From the NCBI GenBank assembly GCA_020632215.1, contig JACKFZ010000001.1:17444-81443 (forward strand): DNA of 64,000 nucleotides. The letters run 5' to 3'. The DNA is from Candidatus Nomurabacteria bacterium (GTDB taxonomy: Bacteria; Patescibacteriota; Minisyncoccia; Phycocordibacterales; JAACPR01). The translations under genes and the position numbers were made by a program. Below, piece after piece: positions 6,287 through 59,340 of this stretch (its first letter is position 1; every line of letters starts with the position of its first letter). Under the pieces are notes generated by a model. The model was not told the origin of the DNA and ran no database searches. It saw nothing but the letters and a program-made list of their open reading frames with translations.

Positions 6287-6455
6287 AGCATAATTTATTA
6301 GAAGTCTTGAAGATGCTTAATAAAATAAAATGATTCACTACTAACTACTATCTACTAACTAGCTTCAATCTGATATAATTATTTGTGTAAGGTCATTCGA
6401 TCTTTTGTTGGTTTTTTGCTGACAAATTTTAATAATTGTTAACTTAATATAAAAT

Positions 6456-6796: not shown

Positions 6797-6826
6797 ACCC
6801 CGCACCATTTTGGTGCGGGGTTTTGG
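6797..6826 (+). terminator. rho-independent terminator
   Basis: ccccgcacc-attt-tggtgcgggg followed by tttt. Confidence 0.75.
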
Positions 6827-10712: not shown

Positions 10713-10755
10713 TTTTAGTTAGTAGTTAGTAGTAAATAGATAGTAGATTTTAATA

Positions 10756-11172: not shown

Positions 11173-11271
11173 GTTCTAATTTTATCAAATAAGAGATTCT
11201 TTTCTACTAACTATTTACTACTAACTACTAACTAACAAAACCCCTTTTCATCCAAAAAAAACCTGCTATAA

Positions 11272-11577
11272 TTGGGCGCAATCGCAGATATGGTTGAGGA
11301 AATTGACAAAAATGCAGAGATCAAAAAGTTAGAGTCTGAGCGAGAAAAACACGTTACTCGCATCTTTTGGATACTAATAGAAATTGCCTTTATTTTTGGA
11401 ATCCCAGCTGCTGTTGCGGTTGTTTTGGTTAAATTTTTGGGAGGCCATACTCTATATATAGCTTTGCCAATCGCTTTCATTCTGTCTTGGGTTATTTTGA
11501 TACTTCATTATAGAAAGATGAGTCAGAGACTAAAGGATTTAGATAGAAAGATAAAAGAACTTAAGATTAGTAAATAG
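11272..11577 (+). CDS. AtpZ/AtpI-like small membrane protein preceding atpB
   Basis: 101 aa with 2 TM helices, located immediately upstream of the F0 a subunit gene. Confidence 0.45.
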   Translation: MGAIADMVEEIDKNAEIKKLESEREKHVTRIFWILIEIAFIFGIPAAVAVVLVKFLGGHTLYIALPIAFILSWVILILHYRKMSQRLKDLDRKIKELKISK

Positions 11578-11640
11578 TAAATACTAAATAGTAAAAGTAG
11601 AAAAGATTATTTAGTATTTACTACTAACTATTTACTAAAA
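11570..11640. repeat. AT-rich heptad (AGTAAAT)n inverted repeat
   Basis: tagtaaatactaaatagtaaaag ... tatttagtatttactactaactatttacta forms a long imperfect palindrome with stop codons in all frames on both strands. Confidence 0.6.
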
Positions 11641-17661: not shown

Positions 17662-18187
17662 GAAAATAACAATAGGAGGTTTGAGTGGTACCGGCAAGGG
17701 TACCATTTCAAAAATGTTGGCTGAGAAAATTGGATTCACTAGAGCTTCAGTTGGAGATTTTGCTAGAGAAATGGCTAAAGAAGAAGGAATGACTATTTTT
17801 CAATTTGATCAGAAACATCAGAATGATGAAGAAGCAGGAAAAAAATTAGATTTAATTCTTGATCAAAGGACAGAAGACTTCGGAAGAGAAAACACCAACT
17901 TTGTTTTTGAAGGAAGATTGCCAGCTCATTTTATCAAAGATGCTTTTAAGATTCTTTTAACTTGTCAGGATGAAGAGAGAGCTAGAAGAATCGGGCAAAG
18001 AGATGAAACTTCAGCAGAAGATTCTTTGAAAGAAGCTTTGGAAAGAGAAGCACTGCTTCGAGACAGATATCAGATTGCCTATAATCTTGCAGACTTTGAT
18101 GATCCAAAGTATTATGACTTCGTTATTGATACGACAAATATCACACCAGATCAGATTGTTGAAAAAATTATTAGTCAAATAACATAA
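17642..18187 (+). CDS. cmk: cytidylate kinase, archaeal-type short form
   Basis: GGLSGTGKGT P-loop, 181 aa, and a C-terminal layout like CmkA. Confidence 0.55.
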   Translation: MMKSKYRKITIGGLSGTGKGTISKMLAEKIGFTRASVGDFAREMAKEEGMTIFQFDQKHQNDEEAGKKLDLILDQRTEDFGRENTNFVFEGRLPAHFIKDAFKILLTCQDEERARRIGQRDETSAEDSLKEALEREALLRDRYQIAYNLADFDDPKYYDFVIDTTNITPDQIVEKIISQIT

Positions 18188-18196
18188 TCAATTTTC

Positions 18197-18793
18197 ATGA
18201 TAGAAAACAAAAAAGCTTTTATTTTCATAGGTCCATCAGGTTCTGGAAAGGGAACACAGTTAGATCTGTTGGAAACTTATCTCAAAGAGAAAGACCATAG
18301 AGAGATATTGAGATATGAAGCAGGAGCTTCACTGAGAGAGTTTGCTAAGGGAGATAGCTTTATGGCCAAGAAGGTTCATCACACTATCAATGTTGAAGGT
18401 GGTTTGTTACCTAGATTTATCATGGTTTGGAACTGGGGGAGAAGATTGGCTCTTGAGCTGAAAGAAGATATGAATCTCATTTTAGAGGGATCTCCTAGAA
18501 AAGTGGAAGAGAAAAAGTTGATTGATGATGCTTTACAATATGCGGACTACAAAGATATTTACGTTATACATTTGAATCTAAGTGATGATGTGGCTGTTGG
18601 GAGATTGATGAGTAGAGGAAGAATTGATGATCAAGAAGAAAAAATTAGAAATCGCCTTAAGTGGTTTAGAGAAGAAGTGGCTCAGACTGTAGAAGAGTTT
18701 AAGAATGATGATAGATATATATATTGTGAAATAGATGGTGATCAGTCTATAGAGAAGGTTCAGGAGGATATTATTAAAGCTTTGGGGGTTTAG
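18197..18793 (+). CDS. adk: adenylate kinase-like P-loop kinase
   Basis: GPSGSGKGTQ P-loop, and an RGRIDDQEEKIRNRL LID/NMP signature like Adk. Confidence 0.6.
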   Translation: MIENKKAFIFIGPSGSGKGTQLDLLETYLKEKDHREILRYEAGASLREFAKGDSFMAKKVHHTINVEGGLLPRFIMVWNWGRRLALELKEDMNLILEGSPRKVEEKKLIDDALQYADYKDIYVIHLNLSDDVAVGRLMSRGRIDDQEEKIRNRLKWFREEVAQTVEEFKNDDRYIYCEIDGDQSIEKVQEDIIKALGV

Positions 18794-18872
18794 ATAAAAA
18801 GAAGAGCCCCGCGCCGTCTTTCCTTTCGGATTGACGAACGCGGGACCTTTGTTTAAATGGGGTGCGAAGGGT

Positions 18873-19346
18873 TCAGTGGGCGTTAGCCACCCTGAGCCAC
18901 TTCTTGAATCTTGAACGAATGGATAAGCAGATCAGGATCCACAGCTCGTGAATCAGCTCGCCGGCGTGTTTGGGGATGCTGGCGATCTGCTCGGCGGCGT
19001 AGTCTTCGTCCGGGGGGATTCTACCGGTCATGATCAGCTCTACCAAGTCGACAGCATCGTCAATGCATGGACCATTGGCTTTGATGTTGAACTGGTACCC
19101 GCTTTTTTTGTCAGAATAACCGGGCGGTGAAACTTCCGCGGTTGCTGTTCCGAAGGAGTATCTTCCTGGTGTCCGCCAATCACTTCTTCTGTTCAGTAAG
19201 CTGGAGTAGACAGTGAAGTAGTCTGGTCTGTATCCGGTAGAAATACACTGCCTCAGGCAGAGTTCTCTGCCTCTTTCCATGTAGGCGATTTGCCCAGCGT
19301 TCGGGTAAACTCCGATAGCCGCTTTTGAGTATGCGCTTATTGTCAT
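18873..19346 (-). CDS. hypothetical protein in GC-rich cassette 1
   Basis: 157-aa ORF in a ~55% GC segment, against ~33% for the host. Codon usage is foreign-looking and there are no recognisable motifs. Confidence 0.35.
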   Translation of the reverse strand: MTISAYSKAAIGVYPNAGQIAYMERGRELCLRQCISTGYRPDYFTVYSSLLNRRSDWRTPGRYSFGTATAEVSPPGYSDKKSGYQFNIKANGPCIDDAVDLVELIMTGRIPPDEDYAAEQIASIPKHAGELIHELWILICLSIRSRFKKWLRVANAH

Positions 19347-19584
19347 TGCCTTTATTCCGCCTGGAGTGGTCCCCAGGTCTGGTTAGGATTTTCAGTGAAG
19401 GTTCATTTGTGGAACACTCGCTCCACGAACTTTCGTCAGGGATAATATAATAAATTTTGTATTATGTCAAATATTCCTAATACACCCTCGTCACCAAACT
19501 TGGTTTAGATTTTAGATAAAAAGAAGAGCCCCGCTGTTCGATTTCTACTAAGCGGGACGGGTGATCGTGGCTGATAATTGAAGT

Positions 19585-19860
19585 TCAGATTTTCATACGC
19601 CAGATGGAAAATCTGATATACATCCAAACAATAAGGATGTACATGGCACAAGGGCCAAAATAGCCCCCAAACCGAATACCTGCGGGGATGATCAAGTATC
19701 TGAGTACCACCTCAGACGCTGTGTCATCTGCATGGCCTTCCAGGCTTAAGAATTCCTGGGATAGAATCTTTTCAGATACCAGAGGATCGACGATGTAGAA
19801 GCCGATCAATAGTGCAATCAGGGCACCAAGCCATATTACTATTACAATTTTATCTTTCAT
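19585..19860 (-). CDS. hypothetical small membrane protein in GC-enriched cassette 2
   Basis: 91 aa with 2-3 hydrophobic helices, in a ~45% GC segment. Confidence 0.35.
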   Translation of the reverse strand: MKDKIVIVIWLGALIALLIGFYIVDPLVSEKILSQEFLSLEGHADDTASEVVLRYLIIPAGIRFGGYFGPCAMYILIVWMYIRFSIWRMKI

Positions 19861-20025
19861 GTTGAAAAGCGCCTCTGCGCGGGTTGTATTTTTGTTTTTC
19901 AGATTTAGCTTTCTATTAGCATAGGCATATCCATGTACCCAAAAAGCTAAATCCGATTAACAAATATCAAAGAGCTATATATTTCTTATATTTAACATAA
20001 AATAGTATTTTGTCAATATTAACGT

Positions 20026-21153
20026 TTAATACACCCTCGCCACCAAACTAGGTTTCTGACTACTCTTCACAATATCAAATCTTAGACGTCCTATGACTTG
20101 TCCTTTTTCATTCTCAATATCAACTCTCCATTTCCCAGTAAAGACAGCAGACTTCTGTGAATAGCCTCTAAAGCCTGAATCTCGCCCACTATAAATAGTT
20201 ATTGGTATTCTATCGGAATCTATCCATCTAAGGGCTTTTTCATCAAAATATGACCATTGATGATAGATTTTCTCTCTGACTTCAATAGGGGTGAAAACAG
20301 CTGAGAAGGCATAGATAGTTTCTCCAGATGTCCAATGGAAAGTATTGTTGTAATCTTTGAACGGTCTATACCACTCATGTTTTTCTCCTTGGACTTGGAA
20401 GTCTCCGTTAGGCAATTTTGTTAGAGAGTGAAAGATTCCTCCATCTTTTAGTGAAAGTGGAATTGGGGGAATGATATTGGTGAAGTAGAGAAAATGAAAA
20501 ACTAAGAAGGTGATGATAATAGAGCCTTTCAGTAAATCTTTTGATCGGGAAAATGTTTTTGGCAAGACTTTTGTTAAAAGCAGTACAAAGAGACTGATGA
20601 TCAGCAAAGCAATCAATGTGCTGAGTATAAAGATAAAAGTTCCTGTCTGATTTAGAATAACTGGAGTAATCATGTTGCTATACGATAGAACAGCTATGAA
20701 AAGTATTGTGGTTTGTAAAGTTAGAAAAGGATATTTCTCATGAATAAACTCATTACTAATTAGCAACACTAGAAGAGTTAAAAGAAAAGGGAAGGAGGTA
20801 ATCAGGGCTCCACTTCTGATGTAGAGAACAAGGAAACCACTAAACAAACCTCCAAAAGCATATTGCATCATATAGGGAAGTAGGGGTTGTATTTTAAGAA
20901 AAATAAAAGATTTGATTTCTTTTTCTTTTTTTAAAAAAGTTAATAGCAAAGTTCCTCCAGCTAGAGACAGTTGGCTAATCAAGATTATGTTATCTAAAAC
21001 TTGGTCCGCTCTATTAAGGGTAAGAGAGTCTACAATGAAACCAAAAATTAAAGATAGGAAAAGTAGAATTCTTTCATGTTGTGTGATTTTTTCTTTTATC
21101 CTTTTAACTTTGTGTTTCAACATTGCTAACTTTATTAAGTCTCCAAACAGCAA
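20026..21153 (-). CDS. hypothetical polytopic membrane protein with C-terminal soluble beta-rich domain
   Basis: About 6 TM helices in the N-terminal 230 aa, then a C-terminal globular region (WYRPFKDYNNTFHWTSGETIYAF...). Confidence 0.5.
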   Translation of the reverse strand: MLFGDLIKLAMLKHKVKRIKEKITQHERILLFLSLIFGFIVDSLTLNRADQVLDNIILISQLSLAGGTLLLTFLKKEKEIKSFIFLKIQPLLPYMMQYAFGGLFSGFLVLYIRSGALITSFPFLLTLLVLLISNEFIHEKYPFLTLQTTILFIAVLSYSNMITPVILNQTGTFIFILSTLIALLIISLFVLLLTKVLPKTFSRSKDLLKGSIIITFLVFHFLYFTNIIPPIPLSLKDGGIFHSLTKLPNGDFQVQGEKHEWYRPFKDYNNTFHWTSGETIYAFSAVFTPIEVREKIYHQWSYFDEKALRWIDSDRIPITIYSGRDSGFRGYSQKSAVFTGKWRVDIENEKGQVIGRLRFDIVKSSQKPSLVARVY

Positions 21154-22033
21154 AAAGGATTACTAGCATACCCAAAACTTGCATTGGCACCAAAGTGGCA
21201 TTCAAGAAGAAGTAATTGATGATGACAGCTCCACCAACAAACCCAAGCTCTGCAATAGTAGCCACTGAGGCTTTGGTATGCGAAAGACCTTTGTAATAAA
21301 TGAATAAGGATACAACACCGGAGACAATTGCGATTATGATCAAGAACAACCAATCAGTAGCAGTTAGATGAGAGATTTGTGTGATAGATGAATTGGCGAC
21401 ATTCCATCCTAAAAGAAACACAAAAGCAGTTAGAAATCTCAATGCTGTTATCGTTTTAAAATCTCTATTTACTAATAAGTATCTACCCAATACTGTAGAT
21501 GAACCCCAAAGTAGAGCTGCTCCTAATGCCAATAAAATTCCAATGATGTTTGGATTAAAAACTTCTCCTTCATAAAGTTGTGGTGCAAAATCTGGAAAAG
21601 AAACTACATAAGCGCCAACTATTGCAACTAAAGCCCAAAACCAAAACTTTTTATTTCTAAATTCATTCAGAATGTATGTGGCCAAAAAAATTGCAATGAA
21701 TGGTTGAACTTTTTGTAAAATAATTACAACTGAAGGGTTCATATATGCGAAAGCTTGAGTGAAAAGAACAAGAGATAAAGCTGATCCACCAAATCCAATT
21801 ATCAAAATTGATACCCATTCTTTTTTATTAAAAGTTTTAAGTTCTCTGACGGCGGGCAAGAGAATAGGAGAGAGAAGTAAAATACTGATAAAATGCTCTA
21901 TTAAAACTATAAATTCACTACTTAGTGTAGAAGTAAGGTGAACTCTAAACGGGGCGTCTGTGGCCCACATTAATGCTGCTAAAAATACTAATAAAGTTCC
22001 ATATTTTTCCGAAAAGGATTTTGTTAAATTCAT
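21104..22033 (-). CDS. EamA/DMT-family transporter
   Basis: 309 aa, 10 TM helices, and a duplicated EamA-like organisation. Confidence 0.7.
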   Translation of the reverse strand: MNLTKSFSEKYGTLLVFLAALMWATDAPFRVHLTSTLSSEFIVLIEHFISILLLSPILLPAVRELKTFNKKEWVSILIIGFGGSALSLVLFTQAFAYMNPSVVIILQKVQPFIAIFLATYILNEFRNKKFWFWALVAIVGAYVVSFPDFAPQLYEGEVFNPNIIGILLALGAALLWGSSTVLGRYLLVNRDFKTITALRFLTAFVFLLGWNVANSSITQISHLTATDWLFLIIIAIVSGVVSLFIYYKGLSHTKASVATIAELGFVGGAVIINYFFLNATLVPMQVLGMLVILFAVWRLNKVSNVETQS

Positions 22034-22845: not shown

Positions 22846-23061
22846 GCGGTAGAGTATAGCAGAATAATGTGAAATATGAATGAAGAAAATCAGGGTTATT
22901 TTAGGAATTATTTAATAATGTTTGAATATTATTTATAAGTTTCTTTAGAAGAGATTTTTTATAATAAAAAGTGTGGTGCCCAGGTAAAACGCGGCGCAGC
23001 CCACCCCGGGCTTGATCCAGGGGCGGGAATTGTTCAATAATATTTTGATAAATTTGTTAAA

Positions 23062-25293: not shown

Positions 25294-25920
25294 ATGAAAA
25301 AGGTAATTTTATTTGATTTTGATGGGGTGATTGCTGACACTTTCAGGATGATACACTCTCTAAATAAGGACTATCATAAATTGAGTGAAGATAAGTATCG
25401 AGAACTTTTTAAGAGCAATATCTTTACAGAAACTAAAAGAATTTTGAATCATCAAACTGAGGAAGATGCTAAAAGACATCATGACGAGTGGTTTGAAAAA
25501 TATACTCCCGCACTCTTGAAGCAAGGTATATTCGTCGGTATGCCAGAAGCTATCGAGGAATTGAGTGAGGATTTCGATATGGTAATCATCTCTTCTTGCG
25601 AATCTTCTGCCATCAGACAATTTTTGGAAAAACATAATTTACTATCTTATTTTTCTGACATTTTGGGTTCTGATGTTCATTTTGATAAATCAGAAAAAAT
25701 ACAAATGGTTTTTGATAAATACGATTACAAGAACACAGATTGTATTTTTGTCACAGATACGGTGGGTGATATTTTAGAGGCAAAAGAAAAAGAAGTGCCT
25801 TCGTTGGTTGTTACGTGGGGTTACCATCGTAAAGAGCACTTCCTTAATTATGATTTTATTTCTTTTGTTGAAAGTCCAGGAGAACTTCCAAAATTAGTAC
25901 GAGATTATTTTAAAGACTAG
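25294..25920 (+). CDS. HAD-IA family hydrolase (phosphatase)
   Basis: ILFDFDGVIADT motif I, a downstream motif II Ser/Thr, and a GD-containing motif IV region. Confidence 0.7.
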   Translation: MKKVILFDFDGVIADTFRMIHSLNKDYHKLSEDKYRELFKSNIFTETKRILNHQTEEDAKRHHDEWFEKYTPALLKQGIFVGMPEAIEELSEDFDMVIISSCESSAIRQFLEKHNLLSYFSDILGSDVHFDKSEKIQMVFDKYDYKNTDCIFVTDTVGDILEAKEKEVPSLVVTWGYHRKEHFLNYDFISFVESPGELPKLVRDYFKD

Positions 25921-26738
25921 AATTCATCTTCCAAATCATCGTATGCATCCTCGGCAGTTTCTCTGGCTTCTTTGGCAAGGTCATAAGCTTCATCATAATC
26001 ACTGTCATCATATGCATCATATGCATCATCTAGGAGATCTTCTGCATCGTCTAATTCGTCTTCTGCATCATTGATTGCGCTGTTCCTAACACCATCGTCA
26101 TCAGCATCGTCAATGAGATCTTCCAAATCATTAATAGCATCTTCCGCATCATTTAATTCATCTCTAGCATCTTCCTTATCATTGTTTCTGTTACCCATAG
26201 CATCGTCTAAATCATCGTATGCATCTTCCGCTATGTCTTTTGCTTCTTGAGCTAAGTCAGAAGCTTCAAAATAGTCTCCATCATCATATGCATCTTCTGC
26301 ATCATCGAGAAGATCCTCCACATCATCTCTGTCATTTTTTGCCCTTTTTAATTCACTACTACTGACATCACTGTCATCTTTAGCATCATCTATGAGTTCT
26401 TCCAATTCGTCCAAAGCATCATAAGCATCATCCAGATCATCTTCGGCGTCTGAACGATTTCCATAGCCATAGTTATAGTAAGTGTTTCCAGAAGAATAAT
26501 ATCCGTATGATCCAGAAAGAGCAGAGATCTGATTTCTAAGATTTTGAATTAGGTTTAATATGTCTCCAATAGACATCTGAACATATGATCCGTTGCTTAG
26601 CTGAATAGCAAACGTGCTATTTGTATTGTATGGGTTGTAAGCAGGGATATAGCTTTGGGCTTCTGCTTGTGATGGGGCAGAAACAGTCAAAACTATTGCC
26701 AAAACAAACATTATTGGAAGTATTTTGATGTATTTCAT
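25917..26738 (-). CDS. secreted poly-acidic (Asp/Glu-rich) tandem-repeat protein
   Basis: Signal peptide MKYIKILPIMFVLAIVLTVSAPSQA, then two ~40-aa internal repeats (EDLLDDAEDAYDD.DY.EA.DLA.EA...AEDAYDDL.D) and further D/E repeats. Start taken at the internal ATG at 26738. Confidence 0.6.
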   Translation of the reverse strand: MKYIKILPIMFVLAIVLTVSAPSQAEAQSYIPAYNPYNTNSTFAIQLSNGSYVQMSIGDILNLIQNLRNQISALSGSYGYYSSGNTYYNYGYGNRSDAEDDLDDAYDALDELEELIDDAKDDSDVSSSELKRAKNDRDDVEDLLDDAEDAYDDGDYFEASDLAQEAKDIAEDAYDDLDDAMGNRNNDKEDARDELNDAEDAINDLEDLIDDADDDGVRNSAINDAEDELDDAEDLLDDAYDAYDDSDYDEAYDLAKEARETAEDAYDDLEDEF

Positions 26739-26881
26739 GTTTTTATAAATTAATAATAATACCTCTTTATGTGGCCACATTACAATATTTTTCCTTGTAT
26801 TTCAAGGGTTATTTGACCTAGCTTTTACAAGCAAAAATAGTATGGTAGTTTTATCTATATTATTATTTAATAAAAATTACT

Positions 26882-41995: not shown

Positions 41996-42715
41996 AATAT
42001 TAATTTGCAAAAGCTGCTAATATGGCAGAGGCTACAAACAATAGAAGTAGTATTTTAGAGTAATCTTTCTTTATTTGGTACTTTTCGGGGACATGTAAGC
42101 CAAATATGAAGCCTGAAAATAAGATTCCTACTATTGCTCCCATACATACTCCTGCTAAATACATTAATGTCATATGCCTAGTATTTTTATTTTTTAAATA
42201 ATTAGGCTTTCACACAAAAAGCCCGCCACGGATAGAGGCCGAACCTCTCGTACCAGTTTCCTGATACGGCCTATCAAGCAAACCCCATGACGGGTTCTTT
42301 ATGCTTGATAGGACTTTCTTACCGTGCCAAATAAAATTTGGGTTAGGCAATATTATTATTCAGTTGTCCATTCATTCTAACATGTATATCAGAAACACCC
42401 TATGGTCCTTATTTTAAGCCTTTTAATAAAACGATATCGTTTATGTGTCAATGATTATTTACGATATCGTGGATAAAGTCTTAGACCAAAAAACTGTTTT
42501 CTAATACGTTCTAGATACTGAGGGTAATATGTTTGCATTTCCTTTAAAAGAAGAAGATTTCATTACAGATGGCATAGTTAAGTTTTTTGACTTGCTATCT
42601 AGTTTTGACTACGAAGATAAATTAAAAGAAAGATCAGGGTATGATTCCGTTTCCTTAGATCCATCCCCTAGGGACTCGGAATTAGATTCTGATCCTGGGT
42701 GCTAATTATATAAAA

Positions 42716-45206: not shown

Positions 45207-45806
45207 TTGTATAATGAGTATATGATGAATAAAAGAAGTTGGATTTGGGCCATTGTAATAGTTTTGATTGTAATTTTGTCTTTTGTAAAAATTGCACATA
45301 GCCCCAAGACTGATGATGAAGATTTTAAAAATAATTTAGAAAAAAATATGGCGTTACAAATATCTAGTCCTCAATTTGAAGATGGCGGGAACATTCCATC
45401 CAAATATACATGTGATGGAGATAATACTAATCCAGAATTTAATATGAATGGGGTACCAGAAGGAGCTATCTCTCTAGCTTTAATCATGGATGATCCAGAT
45501 GTACCAACAAATTTGAGAGAAGACGGTATGTGGGATCATTGGATTGTTTTTAATATTCCTCCGCAGACGACCAAGGTTGATGAAAATAGTGAACCTGAAG
45601 GTGTTCATGGTAGTGGAACTGCAGGTAATGCAAACTATCGTGGCCCATGTCCTCCAGACAGAGAGCATCGATATTTCTTCAAACTGTATGCTCTAGATAC
45701 AATGCTCGATCTTCCAGAAGGTGTTTCTAAAAAAGAAGTGGAAGATGCAATGAAAGGACACATCATTGAACAGGCAGAGTTGGTGGGTAAGTATAACAAG
45801 AAATAA
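45207..45806 (+). CDS. YbhB/YbcL-family PEBP (Raf kinase inhibitor-like) protein with N-terminal membrane anchor
   Basis: GPCPPDREHRYFFKLYALD is the bacterial PEBP signature. Confidence 0.7.
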   Translation: MYNEYMMNKRSWIWAIVIVLIVILSFVKIAHSPKTDDEDFKNNLEKNMALQISSPQFEDGGNIPSKYTCDGDNTNPEFNMNGVPEGAISLALIMDDPDVPTNLREDGMWDHWIVFNIPPQTTKVDENSEPEGVHGSGTAGNANYRGPCPPDREHRYFFKLYALDTMLDLPEGVSKKEVEDAMKGHIIEQAELVGKYNKK

Positions 45807-45945
45807 ATTCGAAATACGAAGCACGAAATACGAAACAAATAATAAATTGTAAATATTAAACGTGGAGAGTGGTTTATAATTTTGGGTTTAGTGCTTAGAA
45901 TTTGTTTCGAATTTCGATACTCGGATTTTTCTACTGATTAAAATT

Positions 45946-46173: not shown

Positions 46174-46241
46174 GTTTTGATATAATATTTTTGTAATTAG
46201 GTATTCCTATTTACTATTTACTACTAACTATAAACTAATTC

Positions 46242-47377: not shown

Positions 47378-48268
47378 TCAAGATGACGGATAGAGAATTT
47401 CCTTCTTACCTTCAGGAATCACTTTTTTGATGATGAATTTACCACGAGATCCTGAATCTCTCGCCTCATTCTTCGGCTCGGGTTCAGGATGACGGGAAGG
47501 AATAAACTCTGCTTCTGTGATTTTCATTCTCTTACCATCTTTAAAGAAAAAAGTACCAGGCCAAGGTTTATAGGCTTTGTATTTTAAGAAGTTAAGATAT
47601 GGATCATCTTCTAAATTGAGTTCTCCATCTGATTTTTCTATTTTTTCTGTGAAAGTAGCAAGATTATGTTCTTGTTCTTGTTCATCTATATTACCTAGAA
47701 TCCACTCTGGGATAATTTGTGCCAAAATACGTCCTCCATCTCTCGCCAATTTTTCCAAGACTTCCATTTTGTCAGGCCAATTTTCAAAATAAAGAACTTC
47801 CTGATCAAGTATTGGTCCATGATCCATTTTTTCATCCATTCTCATGACAGTGACACCTGTTTCTTTATCGTTATTTAAAATAGCAGTCTCTATTGGAGTG
47901 GCACCTCTGTATTTTGGCAGTAGAGAAGGGTGAACATTTAGTGCCTTATACTTTGGTAATTTTAAAACAGAGTTTGGAATAATGAGTCCATATGATGCTA
48001 CTAAGAATAGTTCACACTCATATTTTTTTATTTTTGAAATAAAATTGTCATCTAGTTTTTCTGGCTGCAATGTTTCAATTTTATTCTCATCTGCCCAAAC
48101 CTTTACTTCACAAGGAGTTAATACTAACTTTCTTCCCTTTGGTCTATCTGGAGTAGTTACTATCAGATCTGGGATGATGCCAGCATTTTTTAATTCTTCC
48201 AAAACAAAAACACTGAATTCATCAGTCCCGAAAAATGCTATTTTTGTTTCTAATTTTTGATTGACCAT
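47378..48268 (-). CDS. fmt: methionyl-tRNA formyltransferase
   Basis: IAFFGTDEFSV at the N-terminus and the HPSLLPKYRGATPIETAI formyltransferase motif. C-terminal extension present. Confidence 0.85.
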   Translation of the reverse strand: MVNQKLETKIAFFGTDEFSVFVLEELKNAGIIPDLIVTTPDRPKGRKLVLTPCEVKVWADENKIETLQPEKLDDNFISKIKKYECELFLVASYGLIIPNSVLKLPKYKALNVHPSLLPKYRGATPIETAILNNDKETGVTVMRMDEKMDHGPILDQEVLYFENWPDKMEVLEKLARDGGRILAQIIPEWILGNIDEQEQEHNLATFTEKIEKSDGELNLEDDPYLNFLKYKAYKPWPGTFFFKDGKRMKITEAEFIPSRHPEPEPKNEARDSGSRGKFIIKKVIPEGKKEILYPSS

Positions 48269-48270
48269 AT

Positions 48271-48345
48271 TCTACATTCTACATTCTACATTCTACATTC
48301 TAAATACTACATTCTACATTCTACATTCTAAATTCTACATTCTAA
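48271..48345. repeat. (TTCTACA)n heptamer tandem array filling the def-fmt intergenic space
   Basis: About 10 tandem heptamers with occasional taaata/taaatt variants. The array abuts the def stop codon. On the minus strand it reads TGTAGAA, giving TAG in all three frames. Confidence 0.8.
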
Positions 48346-48985: not shown

Positions 48986-49336
48986 ATGAAAAGGATTGCA
49001 TTTCACAAACTTCAAATTGGTCCGCCGAGACATGGTGTTATCTTGTGCAGCCATGAAGGAGAGGGGATGGTCGATTACTGTGCTGGTGATCAGAGGACAC
49101 TACTTCTTCAAAATTCTGCCGACACAACGTTCACGATGGTCTGTCAGGGCAGACATCGTCGAAGTGACCTCGAAAAAGGCAATGAGGTATGGGTAATCTA
49201 TTGGAAAATCACGAAAAACTGTTCTTTGCCAAATGATGCCAAACAATTGTCTTCAGCAATTGAGTTGGGATCCCGGGCATCGTCACTGGAATGGTTAACT
49301 CAACCTGATTTTCTCAGGAAATACCCTGAAATTTGA
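48986..49336 (+). CDS. hypothetical ORF in a locally GC-enriched (~45%) segment
   Basis: 116-aa ORF with no motifs. The segment is bracketed by the two heptamer arrays. Coding status is uncertain. Confidence 0.2.
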   Translation: MKRIAFHKLQIGPPRHGVILCSHEGEGMVDYCAGDQRTLLLQNSADTTFTMVCQGRHRRSDLEKGNEVWVIYWKITKNCSLPNDAKQLSSAIELGSRASSLEWLTQPDFLRKYPEI

Positions 49337-49450
49337 TCGACACCTTTCTCTTTATCCCGCGGTCACAGGATTCACTCCTCGTGGCCGCTTCGTTTTTATC
49401 TATTACCTATTAACTACTCCGCATAAACTTCGCTATACAGGGCAAGTATT

Positions 49451-49538
49451 CTAAATACCACATTCTACATACTACATACTACATTCTACATTCTACATTC
49501 TACATTCTACATTCTACATTCTAAATTCTACATTCTAT
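49451..49538. repeat. (TTCTACA)n heptamer tandem array abutting the priA-like stop codon
   Basis: A second copy of the same heptamer array (ctacatactacatactacattctacattctacattctac...). Confidence 0.8.
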
Positions 49539-51534: not shown

Positions 51535-52548
51535 ATGTCATTTTTTACTCCAAAATTAGGAATAGATCTTGGAACGGCAAATACTCTTGTTTTTATGCCT
51601 AAAAAGGGAATAGTGCTTAACGAACCTTCTGTTGTGGCTGTCTCCGAACAAGATAACAAAGTACTAGCTGTAGGGAATGAGGCTAAGCATATGATTGGTA
51701 GAACTCCAGAAAGTATCATTGCTTATCGTCCAATGCGAGATGGTGTTATTGCTGACTATAGAGTCACAGAAGCAATGCTTCGATATTATTTCAACAAAGC
51801 TCTCGGTAAATGGAATTTTTTCAAACCAGAAGTGATGGTTAGTGTGCCAGCTGGTGTTACTTCTACAGAGAGAAGAGCTGTCATTGAAGCATCTATCAAG
51901 GCTGGTGCTAAAAATGCATATATTGTTAAAGAACCAATTCTCGCTGCGATTGGTGCTGGTATTCCGATTCAAGAAGCTCAAGGTCATATGATTGTTGATA
52001 TTGGAGGAGGAACAACAGATGTTGCCGTAATATCGCTTGGAGGAATTGTTTCTTCTACTTCTGTGAAATGTGCAGGAAATAGAATAGATCAAGCCATTAT
52101 TGATTATGTAAAAAAGACTTTTAATCTTGCTATTGGAGATAAAACAGCTGAGCAGATAAAGATAAAAATTGGATCTGCTGTTTTTATGGATGATGAGCTG
52201 GAGATGACTATTAAAGGTCGTGACTATTTGACAGGTTTACCACGATCAACAACTATTAAGACAAATGAAATTGTTAAAGCCATTAGCAAAGAGCTTAATG
52301 AGATGATTAGAGCTATCAAAGATGTCTTGCAAGAAACTCCGCCAGAACTAGCTTCAGACATTATTGATCATGGAATTACTATGACCGGAGGTTCATCTCA
52401 ACTTCGAAATCTAACAGAACTTGTTTACAGAAGAACTGGTGTCAAAGCCGTTTTAGCAAAAGATGCCCTCTATTGTGTAGTCAAGGGAACTGGTATTGCT
52501 CTTAATCATCTCGATACTTACAAGAGAAGTATTATTTCTAAACGTTAA
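51535..52548 (+). CDS. mreB: rod shape-determining actin homolog MreB
   Basis: LGIDLGTANTLVF, EPSVVAV and DIGGGTTDVAVIS actin-fold motifs. Confidence 0.9.
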   Translation: MSFFTPKLGIDLGTANTLVFMPKKGIVLNEPSVVAVSEQDNKVLAVGNEAKHMIGRTPESIIAYRPMRDGVIADYRVTEAMLRYYFNKALGKWNFFKPEVMVSVPAGVTSTERRAVIEASIKAGAKNAYIVKEPILAAIGAGIPIQEAQGHMIVDIGGGTTDVAVISLGGIVSSTSVKCAGNRIDQAIIDYVKKTFNLAIGDKTAEQIKIKIGSAVFMDDELEMTIKGRDYLTGLPRSTTIKTNEIVKAISKELNEMIRAIKDVLQETPPELASDIIDHGITMTGGSSQLRNLTELVYRRTGVKAVLAKDALYCVVKGTGIALNHLDTYKRSIISKR

Positions 52549-54776: not shown

Positions 54777-55328
54777 ATGAAACACAACATTAATGATTTT
54801 AAAAGAGGATTATCAGACATTGAGGAGTGGTTGAAAAAAGAGATGTCTGGTATTAGAACAGGACGAGCAACCATCAATTTGCTAGATTCTGTCATGGTTG
54901 AATCTTATGGTACCAAAAGTCCTATCAATCAGAATGCTACTATAAATATAGAAGATCCAAAGACAATTCGTATTGTTCCGTGGGATAAGAGTCTGATACA
55001 AGCCATAGAGAAGTCTATTACGGTTGCTGATCTAGGAATTTCTACTTCTGTTGATGGAGAAGGCTTAAGAGTTATTTTTCCAAATCTGACAACTGAAACT
55101 AGAGAAAAATTGGTAAAGCAAGCAAAAGGAAAAATGGAAGAAGCAAAGATTTCGACTAGAAATGAGAGGAACAAAATAATGAAAGAAATCGACGAAGATA
55201 AAAAAGATGGTGGTTTACCAGAAGATGATATGAAAAGAGCCAAAGATGAGGTCGAGTCTTTGATTAAAAAAAGCCACGATGCGTTTGAAGATTTATTAAA
55301 AAAGAAAGAGCAGGAAATTTTAATCTAG
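54777..55328 (+). CDS. frr: ribosome recycling factor
   Basis: Strong match to RRF across the whole length (MSGIRTGRATINLLDSVMVESYG...). 183 aa. Confidence 0.9.
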   Translation: MKHNINDFKRGLSDIEEWLKKEMSGIRTGRATINLLDSVMVESYGTKSPINQNATINIEDPKTIRIVPWDKSLIQAIEKSITVADLGISTSVDGEGLRVIFPNLTTETREKLVKQAKGKMEEAKISTRNERNKIMKEIDEDKKDGGLPEDDMKRAKDEVESLIKKSHDAFEDLLKKKEQEILI

Positions 55329-55410
55329 TAAATAGTAAATACTAAATAGTAAGCAGATCTTTTATATACTTTACTATTTACTATTTACTATTTACTATTT
55401 ACTAACATGT
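55326..55410. repeat. (AGTAAAT)n / (ATTTACT)n inverted heptad repeat forming a ~26-bp AT-rich hairpin
   Basis: agtaaatagtaaatactaaatagtaa ...loop... ttactatttactatttactatttactatttact. Confidence 0.7.
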
Positions 55411-58233: not shown

Positions 58234-59340
58234 ATGGACTTTAAGGGGTATATTTTGAAATATTTCGATATTGTAAAGAGGAACTTTTTTAAGCTTTTTT
58301 CTCGTGATATTGGTATAGATCTGGGAACTGCAAATACGCTAGTTTATGTTCCTGGTAAGGGGGTGGTTTTGAATGAACCTTCTGTGGTTGCCTTGAATCA
58401 AAAGACTGGTCAGGTTGTGGCTGTGGGAAAAGAGGCCAAGCAAATGCTTGGGAGAACTCCTGGACACGTTGAAGCTATTAGACCACTTGTCGATGGAGTC
58501 ATTTCTGATTTTGAGGTAACAGAAGAAATGATTAGCTATTTGGTCAAAAAGACGTTAGCAGATGAGAAAAAACTTTTTGGGCCACGAATTGTTGTCGGCG
58601 TTCCTTCGGGAGTTACAAATGTGGAATCAAGAGCAGTTCGTGATGCCACAATCAATGCAGGAGCCCGAGCAGTTTATATTGTTGAAGAACCAATGTCTGC
58701 TGCTATCGGTATTAGATTACCAGTCCATGACCCTGTTGGTAATATGATCATTGATATTGGAGGTGGCACAACAGATATTGCTGTTATCTCTCTTGGTGGG
58801 ATTGTTCGTTCTAAAAATTTAAAAATTGCAGGTGATAAATTAAACAACGACATTATTACTTATGTTAGAAATGAATTTAAAATTTTAATAGGAGAAAAAA
58901 CAGCAGAAGAAGTAAAGATAGAAGTTGGTAGTGTCGACCCTGATATGGGAAATTTTGAAGCTTCTGTCAGAGGGAGAGATTTGATTACTGGTTTACCAAG
59001 AGAAGTGATTCTAACGGATTCAGATTTGAGAGAGGCTATTGCACAGTCTGTTGCAACATTGGTTGAATCAACAAAAGAAGTTTTGGAGTCTACGCCACCA
59101 GAGCTAGTTTCTGATATTATGAGGAGAGGAATTTTTCTTGTCGGGGGCGGGGCATTGATCAAAGGTCTAGATAGGCTTTTGCAAGAAGAATTACAAATTC
59201 CAGTATCTGTAGCTAACGAGCCATTAACAGCGGTTGCTAGAGGGACTGGGGTTATATTAGAAAATCTAGAATTATATCGAGATGTTTTGATCGAAGGGGA
59301 AGATGAATTACCAAAAGAAAAGATTACAAAATCGAAATAA
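58234..59340 (+). CDS. mreB: MreB paralog (second copy) heading the mreBCD-mrdA cluster
   Basis: IGIDLGTANTLVY, EPSVVAL and DIGGGTTDIAVIS motifs. Confidence 0.85.
   Translation: MDFKGYILKYFDIVKRNFFKLFSRDIGIDLGTANTLVYVPGKGVVLNEPSVVALNQKTGQVVAVGKEAKQMLGRTPGHVEAIRPLVDGVISDFEVTEEMISYLVKKTLADEKKLFGPRIVVGVPSGVTNVESRAVRDATINAGARAVYIVEEPMSAAIGIRLPVHDPVGNMIIDIGGGTTDIAVISLGGIVRSKNLKIAGDKLNNDIITYVRNEFKILIGEKTAEEVKIEVGSVDPDMGNFEASVRGRDLITGLPREVILTDSDLREAIAQSVATLVESTKEVLESTPPELVSDIMRRGIFLVGGGALIKGLDRLLQEELQIPVSVANEPLTAVARGTGVILENLELYRDVLIEGEDELPKEKITKSK

Follow-up and report, generated by a model that had tools for sequence, protein, structure and literature searches.

Two self-contained single-gene units joined through copied gene ends in the spacer between adk and a DUF2914 gene of Candidatus Nomurabacteria

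Results

Gene order and repeated ends in the adk–ORF375 spacer

We analyzed a stretch of 64,000 nt (the window) of Candidatus Nomurabacteria, assembly GCA_020632215.1, contig JACKFZ010000001.1, positions 17,444–81,443 of the forward strand. The window proteins match a Candidatus Nomurabacteria metagenome-assembled genome (MAG) of the Candidate Phyla Radiation (CPR, Patescibacteria). The locus described here is the spacer between two convergent genes. On the plus strand, an adk-like nucleoside monophosphate kinase gene (18197–18793; Pfam ADK, E = 1e-16) encodes a protein with the C-terminus ...ALGV and ends with the stop codon TAG at 18791–18793. On the minus strand, the open reading frame (ORF) ORF375 (20026–21153) encodes a DUF2914 membrane protein (Pfam DUF2914, E = 1.5e-15). 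The neighborhood is a housekeeping one, with atpD, atpC, cmk, adk, DUF2914, EamA, and murI. Two units, X and Y, lie in the spacer. They carry minus-strand ORFs of 157 and 91 amino acids (aa), respectively, as an earlier note on this DNA had stated.

The units are bounded by copies of the ends of the flanking genes. Repeat A (TTTAGATAAAAAGAAGAGCCCCGC) occurs on the plus strand at 18789–18812 (A1) and 19511–19534 (A2), and the two copies are identical at 24/24 positions. A1 covers the adk stop codon together with the final 2 nt of the Val codon, and then an A-rich tract and the 5′ arm of a hairpin; in A2, the stop codon and terminator tail of adk are present a second time. Repeat B (TAATACACCCTCG[T/C]CACCAAACT[T/A]GGTTT; TAATACACCCTCGYCACCAAACTWGGTTT) occurs at 19478–19506 (B1) and 20027–20055 (B2), with identity at 27/29 positions. 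B2 is the 3′ end of ORF375 itself, and B1 is an orphan minus-strand stub of the last nine ORF375 codons (KPSLVTRVY) with the stop codon TAG at 19477–19479. The layout [A X B][A Y B] proposed earlier was thus recovered, including left ends made of copies of the adk stop codon and terminator and right ends made of copies of the ORF375 3′ end. No further copies of A or B with ≤ 3 mismatches occur in the window, and 100 shuffles gave zero matches.

Besides these cores, just two elements are common to the X and Y units: the 3′ hairpin arm, GCGGGAC, and a −35 region, TTGACAWAATAC. The latter lies 7–10 nt from B in both units, and the exact 12-mer is found at these two places only in the window. Each conserved end spans ~50–58 nt with a variable middle. 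Conserved ends of nearly the ~60 bp previously described are therefore real, but the identity is not continuous and the exact cores are shorter (24 nt and 29 nt). A DNA comparison of the interiors of X and Y detected no similarity.

The order adk-X-Y-ORF375 was independently assembled from four sequencing runs and is also present in the NCBI MAG, with 99.8–100% identity. Hence, the joint between B1 and A2 is real and not an assembly artefact. All four sampled populations have X and Y together. An assembly chimera of two strain alleles might be suspected, as the data come wholly from metagenome assemblies. However, the novel sequence of the B1–A2 joint cannot arise by mixing of alleles, and the agreement between the independent assemblies also speaks against it; the chance that the arrangement is a chimera is next to negligible. 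The strain variants of the other samples differ from the window by 8–15 single nucleotide polymorphisms (SNPs), every one outside 17663–21441. This SNP-free block of 3.8 kb holds cmk, adk, X, Y, and most of ORF375, and its lack of variation weakly suggests that it was recently shared or swept. As the 90%-identity clusters of adk, ORF375, and EamA have one member each, strain variants are lacking for comparison.

Native gene ends and the empty site of a relative

DUF2914 loci were compared in 67 JGI loci and further Logan contigs. The synteny with adk is kept in just one of them, a locus (L007) with 34% GC, in which DUF2914, murI, cmk, and adk are 83%, 70%, 55%, and 52% identical to those of the window, respectively. 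No relatives of ORF375 were found in the GTDB representative genomes. In L007, adk and DUF2914 are also convergent. Their stop codons are 48 bp apart, and the spacer consists of one strong hairpin, a bidirectional terminator. As this spacer is only 48 bp long, the ~1.2 kb between adk and ORF375 is an insertion relative to the L007 state. The presence/absence comparison proposed in the earlier note thus yielded an empty site in the closest syntenic relative found.

The relatives also indicate which copies are original. The adk product of L007 finishes with ...ALGI*; hence, the adk stop codon and A1 are native. The C-terminus KPxLVxRxY* is present in DUF2914 homologs of many genomes, and B2 is therefore the native 3′ end of ORF375. 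This comparison shows the outer copies A1 and B2 to be native gene ends; by the same alignments, B1 and A2 are extra gene-end copies joined head to tail.

With the stop codon counted, B1 and B2 differ at 3/30 positions (90–93% identical). At two of the differences (CCA and ACG), B1 has the state of the L007 ortholog and hence is not a fresh copy of the present-day B2. This would be expected if B1 is old or stems from a different allele. It is compatible with the uptake of a donor allele but is not decisive. None of ~50 other distinct DUF2914 loci has a duplicated 3′ stub. An alternative occupant of the adk/DUF2914 spacer was not found either; occupancy is known from the genome with X and Y and from one empty relative.

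The B1–A2 joint

The joint (19502–19517), read directly from the sequence, consists of GGTTT, then AGAT, and then the second unit of the tandem TTTAGAT TTTAGAT. GGTTT is present at all three boundaries: at 18787–18791 within the adk Val codon and stop codon, at 19502–19506, and at 20051–20055 in the K-P codons of ORF375. Only these 5 nt are common to the left boundary, the joint, and the right boundary, whereas GGTTTAGAT is common to the left boundary and the joint. Without its extra 7-nt TTTAGAT, the joint is B fused to the adk end exactly via GGTTT. Comparison of the three boundaries shows the junction of B1 with A2 to be a duplication joint at a GGTTT microhomology shared with both outer boundaries.

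The extra TTTAGAT may have been added later by slippage. This is plausible because tandem repeats of period 7 are very common in the spacers of this genome. Short repeats of TAG-containing units (TAGTAAA, TAGTTAG, ACTACTA) occur in many spacers (72–97, 6337–6361, 10716–10746, 11204–11234, 11568–11637, 45805–45835, 46207–46231, and 55326–55404) and represent a genome-wide habit.

The earlier note had considered a cassette array resembling an integron or tandem island. In a site-specific system of this kind, small circles would be inserted at a core around GGTTT. Variants would be an integron-like attC × attI reaction, a tyrosine recombinase acting in trans on integrase-less elements, or Xer/dif-type modules. 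The tandem cassettes in the same orientation, the hairpin after each ORF with conserved arms and a variable loop, and GGTTT at all three boundaries fit this model, and GGTTTAGAT is one base off the integron core GTTRRRY. However, a crossover at GGTTT between circles and the chromosome needs an ancestral site at which adk and ORF375 were fused. We rejected this candidate, as B and the adk stop codon are native. Folding of the B1–A2-hairpin region is not better than that of shuffled sequences (z = −1.0 and −1.25), and the only palindrome at the joint is ACCAA-AC-TTGGT, which is imperfect in the second copy. An inverse core is absent, GGTTTAG has one T more than GTTRRRY, and both cassettes come with promoters of their own. 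A Pfam scan of the immediate neighbors and 20 further window ORFs revealed no recombinase. The exact A sequence was not found in JGI metagenomes, and none of the ~50 other DUF2914 loci has a comparable stub. With native outer ends, a common core of 5 nt, separate promoters, and neither an attC-like fold nor a recombinase found among the ORFs scanned, we consider a site-specific system very unlikely. The related proposal of a repeatedly targeted hotspot may hold, but only in the weak sense that two different cargos are present at one locus.

Composition and signals of the units

The GC contents given earlier (~55% and ~45%) were overestimated. Segment 18813–19471 has 50.1% GC, with peaks of 57–59% in windows of 150–200 nt, and segment 19531–20026 has 39.5%, compared to a mean of 34.3% for the whole window. 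Unit X is the strongest GC peak of the window. Codon usage bears out a foreign origin of the cargo. The GC content at third codon positions (GC3) is 0.61 for ORF157 (z = 5.3) and 0.49 for ORF91 (z = 3.4), and the host median is 0.26. The two ORFs are the top two outliers among 64 window ORFs. In both, GC at second positions (GC2) is lower than GC3, consistent with coding sequence of higher-GC origin.

Promoters, Shine-Dalgarno-like sequences, and terminators are present for both ORFs. Judged from these signals, each unit is self-contained on the minus strand, with a promoter, one ORF, and a hairpin with a U-tail. ORF157 and ORF91 are likely expressed from their own predicted promoters.

Unit X: The promoter (19442–19470, minus strand) is sigma-70-like, with TTGACA, a spacer of 17 nt, and TATTAT, and agrees with the consensus at 11/12 positions. 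It is followed by ORF157 (18873–19346, minus strand) and hairpin X (18808–18844; −29.1 kcal/mol), with a z-score of −4.0 for the minus strand and −2.8 for the plus strand. This intrinsic terminator is bidirectional and serves adk on one strand (plus) and ORF157 on the other (minus), where its tail is UCUUCUUUUUAUCU. Transcription of adk and of the minus-strand array is thus predicted to stop at hairpin X in both cases. Terminators of this genome are ordinarily CCCCGC...GCGGGG stems, and others are located at 6798 and 23071.

An ORF of the length of ORF157 arises in 0.65% of shuffles. A word-index search for close homologs gave self matches only. A full HMMER scan found seven distant homologs of 132–150 aa (E = 2e-8 to 9e-4), and the alignment of the eight sequences has 14 invariant columns within conserved motifs. 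Five long multi-repeat HMMER matches (P0123, P0126, P0127, P0129, and P0133) were judged spurious repeat matches. By this alignment, ORF157 is a member of a rare, uncharacterized family of ~132–150-aa proteins. The AlphaFold (AF2) model (mean predicted local distance difference test score 76) has a six-stranded sheet and helices, and the predicted fold has no significant match in PDB or BFVD. ORF157 has no match in Pfam, PADLOC, or PHROG and no relatives in the viral contigs or GTDB genomes searched. The X DNA gave no blastn match to phages and plasmids. One homolog, in a genome with ~48% GC (L012), is a stand-alone unit with its own promoter and terminator and without flank repeats. It sits between rnhB and a small ORF read as rpmF. 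The remaining homologs examined lie in unrelated contexts.

Unit Y: The promoter (19989–20016, minus strand), as read from the sequence, is of the extended −10 type, with TTGACA, a 16-nt spacer ending with TGT, and TAAATA; it scores under the threshold of a simple promoter scan. The leader of ORF91 is ~125 nt long and contains a long hairpin (inverted repeat I1, 19888–19967, minus strand) of 17 contiguous bp (−36.9 kcal/mol, z = −4.7), which may have a regulatory role or be left over from an inverted-repeat element. ORF91 (19585–19860, minus strand) has an N-terminal hydrophobic stretch (hydropathy 2.4 over residues 4–25) predicted to be a transmembrane helix. It is an orphan, as a word-index search of 5.8 billion proteins returned only itself, and it has no match in Pfam, PADLOC, or PHROGs. 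The terminator of ORF91 is hairpin Y (19528–19558; −13.1 kcal/mol), which acts on the minus strand and has an 8-bp GC stem and the same U-rich tail as hairpin X. The arms of the two hairpins are the same (CCCCGC/GCGGG), and the loop of 15–17 nt differs.

The GC-rich segments might instead be structured non-coding RNAs or non-functional captured DNA with spurious ORFs. ORF91 is the more open to this doubt, with no homolog, a very stable leader hairpin, and a length that arises in 3.3% of shuffles (P = 0.033); its coding status is moderately supported. However, an Rfam scan of the region gave no match with E < 0.2, and all scores were far below the gathering scores of the families. ORF157 has seven homologs, 14 invariant columns, and a confident predicted fold. 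The relation of GC2 to GC3, the Shine-Dalgarno-like sequences, the promoters, and the terminators argue for coding in both units. It is therefore highly improbable that the ORFs are spurious.

X and Y could also be diverged paralogs that resulted from a plain tandem duplication of one ancestral unit, and the boundaries do fit a microhomology-mediated tandem duplication. However, the DNA of X and Y is without detectable similarity beyond the ends, and the ORFs differ in length and composition. Because the non-functional B1 stub is still 90–93% identical to B2 while the interiors are dissimilar, drift of paralogs is ruled out, and we give this explanation only a remote chance.

Other features of the window

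Between def and priA, and on the strand opposite to theirs, lies a 116-aa ORF (48986–49336, plus strand). Its GC3 (0.41) ranks third among the outliers, and it has no Pfam match. By eye, a putative −35 box TTGACA and a T-tailed hairpin (...TTTTTATCTA, resembling the A tail) are visible, and the ORF may be another acquired mini-gene. Near this ORF, the heptamer ATTCTAC (read on the minus strand as TAGAATG) forms long arrays at 48264–48344 (10.9 copies) and 49448–49537 (12.9 copies). One fills the def-fmt spacer, and the other adjoins the stop codon of priA. The arrays are 94% identical over 81 nt, with the same variant units, and every unit holds TAG and ATG. We considered them as flank duplications of the X/Y type around the 116-aa ORF and rejected this, since variants of the repeat unit themselves account for what looks like a copy of the fmt start codon.

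LOOT RNA (RF03000) is located at 42234–42349 (minus strand) with 80 bits, well over the gathering score. A short GC-rich (~45–49%) non-coding stretch lies at 22961–23040 between murI and a small ORF, which is probably a cold-shock gene according to the synteny with L007. For this stretch, no Rfam match was convincing, and folding was not significant (z = −0.1 and −0.9). The gene at 25917–26780 (minus strand) has internal repeats rich in acidic codons (families of 31 nt and 178 nt), and its Pfam matches to DUF1771 and DUF4398 are weak and sub-threshold only. Two mreB paralogs are present 6 kb apart, at 51535–52548 and 58234–59340 (plus strand). The group containing Nomurabacteria is usually regarded as ultrasmall cocci or rods.

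Discussion

Possible origin of the arrangement

The explanation we favor, by a modest degree over its being wrong, is that general recombination, with a joint at a microhomology, stacked two acquired single-gene units in the adk–ORF375 spacer. The two transcription units, each with one gene, would have been acquired horizontally and have come to occupy the spacer between the convergent genes, and the joint would have been made without a dedicated recombinase. As the interiors of X and Y are unrelated, two routes were considered. In the first, homology-facilitated illegitimate recombination or unequal exchange would have taken place between an X-bearing and a Y-bearing allele. One end would be anchored by a long stretch of homology in adk or ORF375, and the other would be closed at GGTTT. 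In the second, a microhomology-mediated tandem duplication of the occupied spacer would have been followed by replacement of one cargo. As the −35 box and the hairpin arms are shared, both units would descend from one earlier occupied spacer. Homology-facilitated illegitimate recombination was put forward for type VI secretion system (T6SS) and Rhs arrays that keep stubs (PMC5361080). In cultivated Patescibacteria, natural competence with homologous recombination has been described (PMC10633639).

Several points weigh against this explanation. Competence has not been demonstrated for Nomurabacteria. A microhomology of 5 nt is weak evidence when taken alone. The simple two-allele model does not explain why the −35 region and the hairpin arms are shared around unrelated sequence; such a mosaic needs either an ancestor that was older, occupied, and common to both units or replacements that recurred at the same points. 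The searches recovered a single syntenic relative, and they found neither an allele with one unit ([A X B] or [A Y B]) nor a donor of X or Y.

A broader idea is that ultrasmall CPR bacteria, being dependent on DNA uptake, routinely assemble small integrase-free cassette stacks at the terminators of convergent genes. Each incoming single-gene unit would bring copies of the promoter, terminator, and gene ends of the site, and the next exchange would use these copies as portable homology. The −35 box and hairpin arms common to the unrelated cargos and the mini-gene at 48986–49336 agree with this idea without demonstrating it. The idea rests on one locus, and we regard it as unlikely. If true, such stacks would be a recombination-only analogue of the integron.

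Stacking by general recombination, if correct, makes the X/Y locus a small and clear case of gene gain without any mobile-element machinery in a streamlined genome of an uncultivated CPR bacterium. The joint is preserved in the scar, which allows the route of recombination to be read directly. ORF157 also flags a rare family of ~140-aa proteins, which are stand-alone units in the few contexts examined. Further stacks, if found, would be relevant to the question of how Patescibacteria diversify although they have few classical mobile elements. On its own, the X/Y locus is a curiosity rather than a new system, notable mainly for its CPR host and the preserved joint.

Comparison with known systems

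Integron arrays: An attC site is an imperfect hairpin of ~60–140 nt with R″/L″-L′/R′ boxes, and the core GTTRRRY is present at every cassette boundary. In integrons, the tyrosine recombinase IntI and attI adjoin the array; both are optional for clusters of attC sites lacking an integron integrase (CALINs). X and Y resemble such arrays in being tandem single-ORF units of one orientation with a hairpin after each. In contrast to them, they carry promoters, have no attC architecture or core sites and no IntI that we found, and their recombination point is not at a conserved core.

Tandem site-specific elements: In arrays formed by accretion of integrative and conjugative elements (ICEs) and cis-mobilizable elements (CIMEs) or of the tycheposon type, one att identity segment is repeated at both ends and at the internal joint, and the 3′ end of the target gene is supplied by the element. 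The X/Y boundaries have only GGTTT in common, and B2 and the adk stop codon are native and not element-borne. Xer/dif modules, i.e., integrative mobile elements exploiting Xer (IMEX) and pdif modules, are bounded by 28-bp dif-like sites of 11-6-11 structure with partly palindromic arms. No 28-bp dif-like repeat bounds X or Y.

Minimal mobile elements: These are known from Neisseria (Saunders & Snyder 2002, pmid 12480877, as cited in PMC1538595). Different cassettes occupy the same inter-gene site among strains, with conserved flanks. X and Y are likewise small whole-gene cassettes between conserved flanking genes, without mobility genes, and in both cases the exchange is presumed to occur via transformation and homologous recombination in the flanks. 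No alternative occupancy was observed at the X/Y site, where one genome has two units and one relative has none. The tandem stacking and the joint made of flank copies lie outside the concept.

Phage morons: Morons are independent transcription units added between two genes (PMC3594210). X and Y each have one gene, their own promoter, a factor-independent terminator, and a GC content unlike the surroundings (both are GC3 outliers). They are absent from L007 and sit between genes that are adjacent there. However, their site is in a cellular chromosome, with housekeeping genes around it (atp operon, cmk, adk, murI), and the two units are stacked with duplicated flank ends in between. Residence in a phage is not indicated, as there were no PHROG, phage, or viral-contig matches, and no phage genes lie nearby.

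Displacement arrays: T6SS effector-immunity, Rhs, and contact-dependent inhibition (CDI) arrays have heterogeneous cargos beside a conserved gene, with a stub of the gene end between modules, and the mechanism proposed for them combines one homologous anchor with one illegitimate joint (PMC5361080). At the X/Y locus, the retained B1 stub (27/29) and the GGTTT microhomology at the joint and both outer boundaries correspond to these features. However, DUF2914 is not a polymorphic toxin, the stub has only 29 nt, the ends of both convergent neighbors are copied, and the cargo is without recognizable toxin or immunity features.

On these analogies, X and Y appear moron-like in architecture, similar to minimal mobile elements in genomic logic, and similar to displacement arrays in the scar. 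They would thus belong to known kinds, namely acquired single-gene islets joined by illegitimate or homology-facilitated recombination.

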